This document shows, one piece after another, positions 30,125 through 37,851 of a stretch of DNA of 64,000 bases. The stretch spans positions 1,416-65,415 of the forward strand of contig DXJV01000073.1 of assembly GCA_019056785.1 (NCBI GenBank), given 5' to 3'. The notes below the pieces were generated by a model, which was not told the origin of the DNA, searched no databases, and saw only the letters and a program-made list of their open reading frames with translations. Origin of the DNA: Candidatus Heimdallarchaeota archaeon (GTDB lineage Archaea; Asgardarchaeota; Heimdallarchaeia; JABLTI01). The position numbers and the translations under genes are program-made. Positions within the stretch are counted from its first letter, which is position 1. Every line of letters starts with the position of its first letter.

Positions 30125-33100
30125 ATGGCCCATACTGAAAAGCTCTTTCGAAAATTAGTCCTAGAAAATTTGATGCTACATGACAATACAACTATTGACC
30201 TTGCAAAAGAAGCGATAACATTAATCACAGGGGCAAATGGTTCAGGAAAGACACAAATTCTAGATGGTTTAATCATTTGTTTAGGCTATATCCCTCAAAG
30301 GGCAAAAGGAAAGGGCATCAGAAGTTTGGTGGGAGAAAGAGATGAATTTGCACGTGTATCACTTACATTAAATAACCCTATTATAGATGGGCGGTTCGCA
30401 ATCCAAACCCTTGACCAAGATCTGAATAATGTCATCTCACAAAAGGAATTCACTATTACAGCAAAAATCTCAAAGCAAGAAAACTCAGTAACCTACTATT
30501 TAAATAACTCGCGGCGCATTGTCCAAGGCCGATTAGTCACGAGACGAGATATCCGACGAATTTTCGAATCGATTGGTGTTCGAGGGGACAACAAGCTAGC
30601 TTTTACAGGGGAAGGAACAGTTGATGAGTTCGCCGCAAAAAGTCCAAAGAGAAAACTAGATGTCTTGTTAGATGTCACGGGATTGAAGCACTACCGAGAA
30701 GAAATTATTGCCGCGCAAGAGACGCTAAAAGCAAGCATACAAGAAATCGAGCCCTTGAAACGAAAATACGAGACCGAAAAAAAACTCCTGAACTTGTGGA
30801 ATAACACGCTTTCACTCCTCGCGCAGAAGAAAAAATTGGTCTATATGAAGAAGAAATTGGAAACAGAATTAAGCTGGTCTTTAGTACAAAGAGTTGAAAA
30901 ACAAATCGAAGCATTGAATAAAGAACGCTTGAAAATCCTCAAAAAAAAGGAGGAAGTAACAAAAAAAATCGAACAAAAAATCGAAGAAATCGACTCCAAG
31001 ACAGAGCAATTAACACGGTTAAATGACAAATTAGCATTTGTTAAGGAAAAAGAGGCAAAGAAAAATCACAAGTTAATCATTCTTAAGACACAAATTGCTA
31101 GCGACACAGAAAACATTCAAAATTTAGAAAATGAATTAGCACGATTTGAGGAGCAAAAAGCAGACCTTGAGAAAATACTGAGAACAAAAGAGCTTTCAGC
31201 AAAGGACCGGCAATTAAAAGAAAAATATGAGGTCTTGGCAGTAAAAGAAGCAAAGCTTGCTATGATCCAGGAAAAATACACTCGGGCAGAAAAAGAGTTA
31301 CAAGAACTCCAGAAACAACTTGTACCTGTTTCTGTTATAGACGATTATGATTTAAATGGCGAAATTTTTACTGGGGACAGGTTAACAAAATATGAGGAAT
31401 CGCTTGTTAATGCTGCAAAACGTTTTACAGTATCTCTCCGTTCCCAAGGGTTGGAAAATGATGTCCTAGGACCATTAATAACTTATCTCCATATAAAAGA
31501 GGGAGAAAAGACGTGGGAGCGTGCAGTGAAGAATGTTATCGGTCGGAATTTATTTGCCTTTCTCGCAAAGACAGATGATGCCTATCGGAAGGCAAAAAGC
31601 CTATATGATAAACTCTGGCCCCGTTGGAAACCACCACTTACTGTCTACAAGCTCTCAAATGGAATAAAACAAGAAACAATACCTTTGCAGAAACCGCCAT
31701 ATAAGGAAATCTACGAACATGCGATGAACCTTGTAACAGGGGAACCAGTTGTTGTTAATTTTCTCAAAAGGATTACAAAGGGCCTTGTGGCAGAAGATAG
31801 CTACGACCCGGTCATTCTCACCAAAATTGCCAAAGATCTGCGAATGAATATTCTAACAAAATCAACCAAGAGTTATTTTCTAGCACAGGGTGGCTTTGGC
31901 CGCCCGCCTATGCCAATAAAAACGCCATTTGGTTGGAGAGTAAAAACCCCCACCACAAACAAGCAGCGATTCGCAACCGATTATTACGAAGAGCAAAAGC
32001 TTCGAGTGACAATTGCTAAATTGGAGAAATCGCTTCGAGAACTAAAAATAAGCGAGATCCAAACACTGAGGGCGATCTCCCAATTACACAAGGAAATCCA
32101 GTCGCTTGGTATGCCAGAAGAGAAGCTCATCGGGAAAATAGATTCCATAGCTGACATAGTGAGCCTTATCAAGGCCAAAATCCTCGAGAGCAAAATGCAC
32201 AAAGAAAAGTTGGTGAAAAATCTCCAAAAACTTGATGAGGAGTTTGATTCATTCGCCACAGAACGATTGACATTAAAACGTGCCATTCAGCAAACACAAG
32301 AAGAAATAGAAAAGGCTAAAATAGAGAAGGGTGTGTTAGAAGAGAAAGCGACAGAAGTTGTCATGTTAGAGTTGACCCTTGATAACCAGTACGAAAGCCT
32401 CTTAGAAGAGCAAAAAGAGCGGGAAGCAAATGCTCTGGCAAAAGGTGAGCGGCCTGAAGAAATCCGTTCCTATACAGAAATTCGGGATGAACTCAGTAGA
32501 ATCGAGGGGAATCTGGAATCCATTAACATCAGTGATGTTGATGAAGAGAAAATAACTGCTCAAAAGACAAAAGTGGAATCATTAAAACAATACATGGTGG
32601 AACGGGAAGAACATATCACCAATCTCCGGGCCGATTTAGCAGCACGCCTAACTTTTTGGAATGGCGAATTACATGAGACCATAACAAAAATAACAAAAGC
32701 TATGAAATTACTTTTGAGTGGTATTTTCGAGAAGATTAAATTAAAAATAACTAATATTAATAATCCCGATGAAGCGGGATTGTTTATCGAAGCAATAACA
32801 AAGGGGGCGAGGTACCGCGACTTCCGAGAACTCAGCGGTGGAGAAAAAGTCCTGGCAATTGAAGGATTAATCTTGGCAATGCATACATTAACCGATTCAC
32901 CAATCCACGCAATAGATGAATTCACACAACGATTGGATGAGAAAAACAAAACACTGGCTTTCAATATAGCATTACGAACACAAACATTGGCAAGTGAAAA
33001 TTCACGTTTTGTACCTCAATTTATCCTTCTCTGCCCAGACGCCATAAATGTCGACTTGTCTTCAAATATAAATCATATTGTTGTTTCAGAACTGAAGGTG

Positions 33101-33148
33101 ATAGAAAATGAACCCATTAAAAACGTCCAAAACACTAAGAAACAATAA
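30125..33148 (+). CDS. Non-canonical SMC-family ATPase (Smc5/6-like features)
   Basis: - Walker A: GANGSGKT.
- FTGEGTVDEFAAKSPKRKLDVLLDVTGLKHY, equivalent to the QG..f...p..R motif.
- About 300+300 aa of coiled coil.
- Hinge-like block VLGPLITYLHIKEGEKTWERAVKNVIGRNLFAFLAKTDDAY.
- Signature LSGGEK and Walker B IHAIDEFTQRLDEKN.
- 1007 aa, shorter than canonical archaeal SMC. Confidence 0.8.
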   Translation: MAHTEKLFRKLVLENLMLHDNTTIDLAKEAITLITGANGSGKTQILDGLIICLGYIPQRAKGKGIRSLVGERDEFARVSLTLNNPIIDGRFAIQTLDQDLNNVISQKEFTITAKISKQENSVTYYLNNSRRIVQGRLVTRRDIRRIFESIGVRGDNKLAFTGEGTVDEFAAKSPKRKLDVLLDVTGLKHYREEIIAAQETLKASIQEIEPLKRKYETEKKLLNLWNNTLSLLAQKKKLVYMKKKLETELSWSLVQRVEKQIEALNKERLKILKKKEEVTKKIEQKIEEIDSKTEQLTRLNDKLAFVKEKEAKKNHKLIILKTQIASDTENIQNLENELARFEEQKADLEKILRTKELSAKDRQLKEKYEVLAVKEAKLAMIQEKYTRAEKELQELQKQLVPVSVIDDYDLNGEIFTGDRLTKYEESLVNAAKRFTVSLRSQGLENDVLGPLITYLHIKEGEKTWERAVKNVIGRNLFAFLAKTDDAYRKAKSLYDKLWPRWKPPLTVYKLSNGIKQETIPLQKPPYKEIYEHAMNLVTGEPVVVNFLKRITKGLVAEDSYDPVILTKIAKDLRMNILTKSTKSYFLAQGGFGRPPMPIKTPFGWRVKTPTTNKQRFATDYYEEQKLRVTIAKLEKSLRELKISEIQTLRAISQLHKEIQSLGMPEEKLIGKIDSIADIVSLIKAKILESKMHKEKLVKNLQKLDEEFDSFATERLTLKRAIQQTQEEIEKAKIEKGVLEEKATEVVMLELTLDNQYESLLEEQKEREANALAKGERPEEIRSYTEIRDELSRIEGNLESINISDVDEEKITAQKTKVESLKQYMVEREEHITNLRADLAARLTFWNGELHETITKITKAMKLLLSGIFEKIKLKITNINNPDEAGLFIEAITKGARYRDFRELSGGEKVLAIEGLILAMHTLTDSPIHAIDEFTQRLDEKNKTLAFNIALRTQTLASENSRFVPQFILLCPDAINVDLSSNINHIVVSELKVIENEPIKNVQNTKKQ

Positions 33149-37019: not shown

Positions 37020-37104
37020 TGCCAATTTTTTCTTTTCCCTCTCTTGTAATTTCTTAAAGAAGAGAAAAAAACAGCAGGTAAAAAGGTGAATCGTCATTTC
37101 ACGA

Positions 37105-37851
37105 ATGAACTTCCCACCAACAATAGTAAATGCAAGAATCGCAGAATCCATCCATGTTTTTTATGAAACAATGGAGGAATTCTTCAAGAAAAAGGGCTGG
37201 AAATGGGCGCCCTATAAACGAACTGGTGATAAGTGGATACAAGAGGATTATAGCATTGAAGTGAGAACGAAATATGCCGACGGCGCCTATAAAGAGCTTG
37301 TTTTTACATTGCGTCGAACCCCAGGAATTGTAGGACAATCATCTGGAAGTAAAATCAATATCGGCGATAAACACAAAGTTTCCATTCTCCTTCCACGAGA
37401 GTATCCTGCAAATTTGGCGCACATTAAAATGCGGCTCTTAACCCCTCTCTGGCACCCACGAATTTCCATGGGACGGGGTGGCGATGCCTGCATCACCGTT
37501 AATGGGGAAGTTGATAGGATCCTCATCGATCTTATTTACCATATTCTTATGGACCCAAAACGCATCCGCCCACCAAAACTTTACCCAAAAGAAGATTCCG
37601 GTTTGAATGGTATAGCAATGCGCTGGTTTGAGAAAGACGCAGCAAATATTCATAACTATATGCTCAGTCAATGGGACAAATTACATGAGAAAGCTTCTCT
37701 TAAGGAAAGCGGGGGAATACGAATTATAGGTTCAAAGAAAGAAGCAGTGGAACTTCAGAAAGATAAGCAAGCTGTTCGAATAATTACACATAAACCCGAA
37801 GAGAAAGAGAAGAAACCAAAACAGAAAAAAGGGGGCATTAGAATAATTTGA
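37105..37851 (+). CDS. E2-like ubiquitin-conjugating enzyme (UBC fold) with a repeat-bearing basic C-terminal tail
   Basis: ILLPREYPANLAHIKMRLLTPLWHPRISMGRGGDACITV matches the UBC core (YP..pP...f.t.i.HPN....G.iC) with HPR in place of HPN. Candidate catalytic Cys codon at 37489..37491. Confidence 0.7.
   Translation: MNFPPTIVNARIAESIHVFYETMEEFFKKKGWKWAPYKRTGDKWIQEDYSIEVRTKYADGAYKELVFTLRRTPGIVGQSSGSKINIGDKHKVSILLPREYPANLAHIKMRLLTPLWHPRISMGRGGDACITVNGEVDRILIDLIYHILMDPKRIRPPKLYPKEDSGLNGIAMRWFEKDAANIHNYMLSQWDKLHEKASLKESGGIRIIGSKKEAVELQKDKQAVRIITHKPEEKEKKPKQKKGGIRII

Follow-up and report, generated by a model that had tools for sequence, protein, structure and literature searches.

The eukaryotic Smc5/6 holocomplex is composed of the Smc5 and Smc6 ATPases, the Nse4 kleisin, the Nse1 and Nse3 kites, and two ligase activities, i.e., the Nse1 RING ubiquitin ligase and the Nse2 SP-RING SUMO ligase. 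To our knowledge, it is the least understood of the eukaryotic SMC complexes and the only one that carries ubiquitin and SUMO ligases. Smc5/6-related operons encoding SMC, kleisin, and kite proteins have already been published from TACK and Asgard archaea (van Hooff et al., bioRxiv 10.1101/2024.01.07.573240; Yoshinaga and Inagaki, PMC8665677); extra Smc5/6-related sets were noted in Heimdallarchaeia, and the Nse1 RING and Nse2 were treated as eukaryotic additions (bioRxiv 10.1101/2024.01.07.573240). Prokaryotic operons for ubiquitin-like modifiers (Ubl) include Bil (BilABCD: Ubl, E2, JAB, and E1), the CBASS type II Cap2/Cap3 genes, and the Caldiarchaeum-type Ub/E1/E2/RING/Rpn11 operon (PMC10557695, PMC5654768, PMC3082918), and the descriptions of the bacterial Ubl/E1/E2/JAB operons (Bil and related families) mention no SMC. 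Here, we describe a nine-gene array of a Heimdallarchaeota archaeon in which the genes of an Smc5/6-related module are followed by those of a predicted Ubl-conjugation system. The array is located in a stretch of 64,000 nucleotides (nt) from contig DXJV01000073.1 (assembly GCA_019056785.1), hereafter the window, whose positions are used throughout.

The array encodes, in this order, an SMC ATPase, a kleisin-like protein, a kite-like protein, a zinc-finger protein, a JAMM protease, an E1, a Ubl, and an E2, followed in the Heimdall clade by a small open reading frame (ORF) termed ORF 9. All the genes are encoded on the + strand. The initial annotation of this DNA had listed eight co-directional ORFs whose junctions are an overlap of 41 nt, an overlap of 4 nt, and gaps of 27, 18, 22, 114, and 85 nt, and our ORF calls agree with it exactly, except that a ninth conserved ORF (37848-38174), with a 4-nt overlap between its start and the E2 stop, had been missed. 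Homologues of each of these ORFs are found, arranged in the same order, in numerous other genomes, and thus they are real genes and not chance ORFs. Shine-Dalgarno-like GGTGA sites are found upstream of both the Ubl and the E2 genes, and a T-rich run is located 3' of the Ubl gene. The nine genes probably form a single operon.

A genome scan seeded with the SMC motifs yielded 71 loci; ORFs were called in all of them, and hidden Markov models of each window protein were iterated over the set. The full order recurs in two groups of organisms. Group A comprises about a dozen Heimdall loci, with 55-77% SMC identity, that keep the nine-gene order and are flanked by an S8 protease gene upstream and a histidine ammonia-lyase gene downstream. 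Group B comprises Planctomycetota/Brocadiia bacteria that show the order SMC-kleisin-kite-zinc finger-JAMM-E1-Ubl-E2 at an SMC identity of about 30%, and its flanks are different and bacterial (holA, a Mur ligase, and a Ser/Thr kinase). The adjacency of the two halves is therefore not unique to this genome, a point on which the initial annotation had made its proposal depend. Eight genes stay together across the divide between archaea and bacteria while their surroundings change, and this is the strongest evidence of a joint function. The recurrence in Planctomycetota makes the SMC-Ubl pairing look functional.

The coupling is lineage-restricted, since most Heimdall relatives carry a four-gene SMC module only. 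These genomes, which include AB_125, constitute group C and contain SMC-kleisin-kite-zinc finger with tight gene overlaps, and no Ubl-conjugation genes were present in the sequence retrieved for these loci, which reaches up to 10 kb downstream of the SMC match. None of the scanned assemblies contained both group A and group C. Among the 42 loci that contain the zinc finger and have no less than 1.5 kb of sequence downstream, 19 contain JAMM or E1; 21 of the other 23 belong to clade C, L038 and L066 being the remaining ones. An independent scan of metagenomes, with the E2 as its anchor, yielded 17 loci, and SMC-module genes were found in six of the eight that had at least 2.4 kb of upstream sequence. 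The two exceptions, L089 and L091, come from a divergent branch characterized by a fusion of Ubl and E2, with no SMC genes upstream. In an unrooted neighbor-joining tree of the four concatenated SMC-module proteins, clades A, B, and C were each recovered with 100% bootstrap, and clade A grouped with the bacterial versions and not with clade C at 81% bootstrap, a moderate support.

Several other observations concern the family as a whole. A fourth group (D) comprises Planctomycetota with the SMC gene alone, and a solitary SMC-family gene with no kleisin, kite, or zinc-finger partner detected nearby was observed in L005/L034, L006/L044, L047, L056, and L065, whereas the Coatesbacteria locus L070 encodes SMC-kleisin-kite without the zinc finger; these bacterial loci suggest a stepwise decay of the family in bacteria. 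Some clade A members, with 60-78% identity to the Heimdall proteins, have been deposited under unrelated taxon names (Bathyarchaeia for L015/L023, Thorarchaeota for P0047, Zixibacteria for P0056, and Glassbacteria for P0018), which are probably binning errors in the source metagenome-assembled genomes. The L090 locus, which by its ORF sizes had been considered as a permuted Ubl-E2-SMC locus, was discarded, as Pfam identified SecA, PIG-L, MobA, and PilM.

The first gene (30125-33148) encodes an Smc5/6-related SMC ATPase of 1007 amino acids (aa). It contains a Walker A motif GANGSGKT (aa 36-43), a signature motif LSGGEK, a Walker B motif HAIDEF (aa 928-933), and a hinge block VLGPL...W..AV...IG..L.AF that begins near aa 447, together with the coiled-coil arms and the hinge. 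The Walker A, Walker B, and hinge motifs are read in the sequence as the initial annotation had given them, and the motif residues are invariant or nearly so in 16 family members. The protein matches Pfam SMC_N (2.5e-21) over aa 10-945, and it scores far under the family cut-offs of the canonical SMC and Rad50 models. It shares 99% identity with a database protein annotated as coming from "Candidatus Heimdallarchaeota archaeon". The best PDB match of the single sequence is yeast Smc6, over its full length. When the profile of the 16 sequences was compared with PDB, Smc6 scored 6e-37 and Smc5 2e-21, whereas Smc1-4, bacterial Smc, and Rad50 scored 1e-18 or weaker. By this ranking of profile scores, the ATPase appears to be nearer to Smc6, and then to Smc5, than to the SMC proteins of the condensin/cohesin type, Rad50, or MukB, which speaks against its being an ordinary SMC or Rad50, the outcome that the initial annotation had named as fatal to its proposal. 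When the C-terminal head is aligned to human Smc6, a QFILL(C/T)P motif and the DEF form of Walker B are found in both. A single SMC gene is found in the window and in all the related loci, with no pair of Smc5 and Smc6 genes, suggesting that the SMC subunit forms a homodimer, as in other prokaryotic SMC complexes.

The second gene (33108-33914) encodes a protein of 268 aa and is flanked by the SMC and kite genes in 54 loci. The kleisin-like family had no sequence-level match in profile searches against PDB and Pfam, and the contigs of its distant relatives were too short to extend the context. An AlphaFold2 model built on an alignment of 53 diverse homologues reached a mean pLDDT (predicted local distance difference test) score of 79 and contains four N-terminal helices (26-116), a disordered segment (121-177), and a helix plus a winged helix (178-245). 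As modelled, this is the layout of a kleisin, i.e., an N-terminal helical domain, a flexible linker, and a C-terminal winged helix. The top Foldseek match of the model in PDB is 7qcd_F (E 3.8e-3, probability 0.89) and the second one is 7tve_G, both being chains of yeast Smc5/6, and all the other matches are plain winged-helix proteins. The 7QCD structure contains only Smc5, Smc6, and Nse1-4. Since chains A and B are Smc5 and Smc6 and chain C has the length of Nse2, chain F is very probably Nse4, an assignment that derives from the other chains and not from the chain label. Thus, the model and its match to an Smc5/6 chain uphold the kleisin proposed initially, and the protein can be considered a Nse4-like candidate.

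The companion claim of a KITE protein refers to the third gene (33911-34540), which follows the kleisin gene in 50 loci and encodes a 209-aa protein. Some members of this family show sub-threshold Pfam matches to MAGE (1.2e-3), SMC_Nse1 (2.7e-3), and MksE (4e-3), all three on the second winged helix, as well as to a MarR-type winged helix. The comparison of its profile with PDB returned winged-helix regulators only. By position and by these weak Nse1, MAGE, and MksE similarities, the protein would be kite-like, with a predicted tandem winged helix of the Nse1/Nse3 type.

The fourth gene (34568-35050) encodes a Cys-rich zinc-finger protein of 160 aa. C13, C33, C36, C41, C44, and C56 are invariant and H/C16 and, mostly, H66 are conserved too, giving eight conserved Zn-ligand positions as in binuclear cross-brace fingers, and the C-terminal region contains a conserved motif W..FG.V.VKR..GKF.TWG. 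The gene is found in 45 loci, including every four-gene version devoid of Ubl-conjugation genes, and thus the zinc finger is part of the SMC module and not of the Ubl-conjugation cassette. Pfam gave weak matches to IBR, FYVE, and ZZ domains, and the top matches of the family profile in PDB were to the RNF4 RING (E 0.024-0.6). An AlphaFold2 model from a shallow alignment had a mean pLDDT of 55, its sole confident part being the N-terminal 88 aa (pLDDT about 75), and its Foldseek neighbors were almost all RING, U-box, NSE2 SP-RING, or ZZ domains at non-significant values (E >= 0.2). We consider the RING-like nature of this protein as a lead rather than as a result.

The four genes that follow correspond to the cassette that had been described as a complete Ubl/E1/E2/JAMM set, and their identities stand at different levels. 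The fifth gene (35069-35695) encodes a JAMM/JAB metalloprotease of 208 aa that matches Prok-JAB in Pfam (1e-6) and JAB in PADLOC (2.5e-8), and whose motif E75 ... H142-x-H144 ... S153-x2-D156 is conserved in 19 homologues. It is predicted to be a Ubl-deconjugating or processing enzyme. The sixth gene (35718-36587) encodes an E1-like adenylating enzyme of 289 aa with a single ThiF/MoeB-type domain (Pfam ThiF, 2.2e-44). It matches the ThiF, MoeB, UbaA, and Ube1 models of NCBIfam, each under its family cut-off, and has conserved the GxGxxG motif, the CxxC...C...C zinc site, and C200. By motif and profile, the assignments of the JAMM and the E1 are solid. The eighth gene (37105-37851) encodes an E2-like conjugating enzyme of 248 aa. 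UQ_con was matched in seven of nine family members under the Pfam cut-off (best 5.8e-4), and the family profile retrieved only E2 enzymes from PDB (best 3e-4), over the active-site region. These consistent weak matches, together with an invariant block formed by H117-P-R, C129, and VNGE.DR, support its assignment as a putative E2. The catalytic motifs of JAMM, E1, and E2 are intact in archaeal and bacterial members.

The seventh gene (36702-37019) encodes the predicted modifier, a protein of 105 aa that ends in ...AQVG with the stop codon immediately after. The terminal V-G and the direct stop are invariant across the family, the gene is located between those of E1 and E2 in all complete loci, and the Heimdall and Planctomycetota proteins share 51% identity. 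Pfam and PDB profile searches gave no beta-grasp match for the family; hhalign against ubiquitin gave a 23-column in-register match with a probability of 3.8%, a non-significant result, and against MoaD it was not significant either. From its context and its invariant C-terminal Gly, we infer that this protein is a beta-grasp modifier. A sulfur-carrier interpretation of the E1 and the Ubl was ruled out, since E2 and JAMM always accompany them, a presence that favors protein conjugation over sulfur transfer.

ORF 9 (37848-38174) encodes a protein of 108 aa with a TTG start. It is located after the E2 gene in L001, L002, L003, L008, L009, L010, L016, L022, L080-L083, and L088. It is conserved in all the full-length loci of the nearest Heimdall clade and is found in the Heimdall clade only. 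It had no family match in Pfam, PADLOC, or NCBIfam, and shows a conserved C-terminal block STIKII.E.D...PPN(F/Y)SPYF(K/R)C..H. The C-terminal tail of the Heimdall E2 contains two G-G-I-R-I-I motifs, one of them at the extreme C-terminus, the tails of the bacterial E2 proteins show a looser G-x-(V/I)-x-I-x-G, and ORF 9 contains S-T-I-K-I-(I/L) followed by PPN(F/Y)SPYF(K/R)C..H. The psi-x-psi-psi hydrophobic pattern of the E2 tail and ORF 9 appears to resemble SUMO-interaction motifs.

The divergent bacterial branch shows a further peculiarity. Its Ubl ORF does not stop after VVG but extends into the N-terminal E2 helix, and the change of frame to that of the E2 core coincides exactly with a homopolymer of A9-A10. 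The switch sites are located at 16270-16350 of L062, 3780-3870 of L089, 640-760 of L090, and 555-640 of L092, four independent loci whose flanking bases differ, and this pattern suggests programmed slippage or a gene for a phase-variable fusion of Ubl and E2, and not an assembly error.

On balance, we lean towards the view that the nine genes constitute one functional unit, in which an Smc5/6-type DNA-entrapping complex is combined with Ubl conjugation for genome maintenance or for the control of extrachromosomal DNA. The SMC homodimer, the Nse4-like kleisin, the Nse1/3-like kite, and the RING-like zinc finger would form the DNA-entrapping ATPase complex. The E1 would adenylate the C-terminal Gly of the 105-aa Ubl, the E2 would carry the Ubl as a thioester, and the JAMM protease would remove it, with ORF 9 being a small accessory protein added in the Heimdall clade. 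Once the SMC complex has loaded onto DNA, the zinc finger might serve as an adaptor of the RING type and recruit E2~Ubl to the complex, and the Ubl could be attached to the SMC subunits or to proteins located on the DNA that the complex has captured, in what would be the prokaryotic counterpart of the Nse2-SUMO and Nse1-ubiquitin activities of eukaryotic Smc5/6. JAMM would finally reset the system. Judged by the anatomy of the array and its likeness to eukaryotic Smc5/6, this SMC-directed Ubl conjugation is the most likely mechanism. The synteny, the profile scores, and the kleisin model thus sustain, with corrections, the initial idea of an SMC complex coupled to Ubl modification.

Several points weigh against this interpretation. 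The beta-grasp fold of the modifier and the tandem winged-helix fold of the kite are predictions, and the RING-like call of the zinc finger derives from a model of mean pLDDT 55 and from the non-significant Foldseek matches mentioned above. Moreover, the zinc finger is also encoded in many four-gene loci without linked Ubl-conjugation genes, and therefore it need not be an E3. The T-rich run and the 114- and 85-nt gaps could reflect separate transcription units. The L038 and L066 loci contain the SMC module without the Ubl half and group in the tree with A/B and not with C (81% bootstrap for this split), and the divergent Ubl/E2 branch devoid of SMC genes (L089 and L091) indicates that the Ubl half can stand alone.

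The same biochemical mechanism might serve a dedicated immune role instead. Foreign DNA is sensed or entrapped by Wadjet, Lamassu, and human Smc5/6, and Ubl cascades operate in Bil and CBASS Cap2/Cap3. According to this alternative, which we regard as possible but rather unlikely, the array would be a composite anti-plasmid/anti-virus defence system whose SMC senses or entraps foreign DNA and whose Ubl cascade acts as effector or regulator. In its favor, the distribution across domains is patchy, and the grouping of Heimdall clade A with Planctomycetota over clade C points to horizontal transfer; the existence of reduced variants (solo SMC and three-, four-, and eight-gene forms) and the phase-variable-looking A9-A10 tract in the Ubl-E2 gene of one bacterial branch also speak for it. 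In PADLOC, the ATPase head matches LmuB (1.8e-20) and JetC3 (5.5e-9), and the E1 and the JAMM match the CBASS Cap2 and Cap3 models at the domain level only, whereas the kleisin-like, kite-like, zinc-finger, Ubl, E2, and ORF 9 proteins had no match. However, the ATPase is most similar to Smc6 and not to LmuB or JetC, and no nuclease, other effector, or PADLOC system match was found among the neighbors of the array. Its flanks are rather of a housekeeping type, both in the window (mevalonate-pathway thiolase, HMG-CoA synthase, two aromatic ammonia-lyases of the histidine type, HisRS, and EF-2) and in the Planctomycetota locus L062 (holA, a Mur ligase, and a kinase). The synteny is stable across the Heimdall clade, and the viral contigs of IMG/VR yielded no member of the family. 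In summary, the cross-domain transfer and the patchy loss lean to an accessory function, but the stable housekeeping neighborhood leans in the opposite way.

The view that two independent operons merely adjoin, an SMC operon for chromosome maintenance and a general operon of Ubl-modification or sulfur-carrier type, is very improbable: it would account for the four-gene SMC module standing alone in most Heimdall relatives, the divergent Ubl/E2 pair without SMC genes, the larger gaps and the T-run around the Ubl gene, and the ThiF/MoeB type of the E1, but not for an order and adjacency held at about 30% SMC identity between archaea and bacteria with wholly different flanks, nor for the recovery of SMC genes by the E2-anchored search, and the E2 and JAMM speak for protein conjugation and not for sulfur transfer.

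Concerning the genes that surround the array, the S8 protease and the histidine ammonia-lyase were rejected as parts of it because they flank the Heimdall clade only and are absent from the bacterial versions. In L062 (Planctomycetota), the end of a gene encoding a NYN-domain protein (ribonuclease type, 9399-9989) coincides with the first base of the SMC gene; this NYN gene was also rejected, since it adjoins SMC in this locus alone and has no homologue in the other fetched loci. Downstream of the array in the window, the gene at 38321-40048 encodes an aromatic (histidine/phenylalanine) ammonia-lyase with a rubredoxin domain inserted at aa 277-324, which is conserved immediately downstream of the array in every locus of clade A. 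Another lyase, a paralogue that lacks the rubredoxin insert, is encoded at 40486-42009, and a histidyl-tRNA synthetase at 42490-43992. Rfam detected a tRNA spanning 110 nt at 40165-40274 (48.9 bits), a length that suggests the presence of an intron, and ARAGORN found no tRNA in the whole window. The gene at 44961-46592 encodes a 543-aa protein with weak coiled-coil matches, below the cut-offs, to ATG16 (1.2e-6) and the crescentin rod (5.2e-6), which may be an archaeal coiled-coil or cytoskeletal protein.

If the functional unit exists, this compact array would offer a minimal, reconstitutable model of SMC-directed protein modification, and the Planctomycetota versions may lend themselves better to cloning or to genetic work. 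The fact that Heimdall archaea encode it is relevant to the question of which components of the Smc5/6 holocomplex eukaryotes inherited at their origin. If the array is active against foreign DNA, it would join two branches of prokaryotic immunity, the SMC-based and the Ubl-based ones. A more speculative proposal, to which we give only little credence at present, is that Smc5/6 and ligases of the ubiquitin family were already partners before eukaryotes arose, the Heimdall complex having had a RING-like subunit and one clade a complete Ubl cascade modifying the complex or its substrates. If true, the array would be a direct prokaryotic antecedent or a working analogue of the Nse1/Nse2 function, and this function would not be a eukaryotic innovation, contrary to the current statement.

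When compared with the known systems, the array has in common with Lamassu and Wadjet an SMC-family ATPase, and Wadjet also has kleisin and kite partners. Unlike them, it contains no LmuA, LmuC, or JetD nuclease partner, its kleisin and kite have no JetA or JetB match in PADLOC, and its ATPase scores far better against Smc6. Like the Bil, CBASS, and Caldiarchaeum operons, the array encodes a predicted Ubl with a C-terminal Gly, an E1, a putative E2, and a JAB/JAMM protein, with a small protein nearby that may be RING-like. It differs from them in that the Ubl genes are linked to an SMC complex, the E1 is a short single-domain ThiF-type protein (289 aa), and the E2 and the Ubl are too divergent for the Pfam thresholds. 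In contrast to CBASS type II, there is no CD-NTase, and E1 and E2 are encoded by separate genes and not by a Cap2-type fusion.

The first three genes have the same architecture as the archaeal Smc5/6-related operons and the same presumed relationship to Smc5/6, Nse4, and Nse1/3. The reports of those operons (10.1101/2024.01.07.573240, PMC8665677) present neither a fourth zinc-finger gene nor adjacent Ubl/E1/E2/JAMM genes. No description of an SMC-Ubl operon was found in the literature searched, in agreement with the initial annotation, which knew of no SMC complex operonically coupled to a Ubl machinery. As far as we can tell, the first three genes are thus of a known kind, and the RING-like fourth gene and the dedicated Ubl cascade on an Smc5/6-like complex are new.

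Compared with eukaryotic Smc5/6, the array has one SMC gene (predicted homodimer) and one kite gene, and no Nse5/6 candidates were seen in it. Its zinc finger is a separate 160-aa protein that is neither a kite domain nor a known binder of the Smc5 arm, and it encodes a dedicated E1, E2, Ubl, and protease, whereas eukaryotes borrow the cell-wide system. Nevertheless, the resemblance extends over several parts: the ATPase is nearest to Smc6 and Smc5 and carries the DEF Walker B and QFILLxP motifs, the kleisin model best matches a yeast Smc5/6 chain, the kite weakly matches Nse1 and MAGE, and a Zn subunit that may be RING-like and a predicted Ubl-conjugation activity would be associated with the complex, as ubiquitin and SUMO ligases are with Smc5/6.

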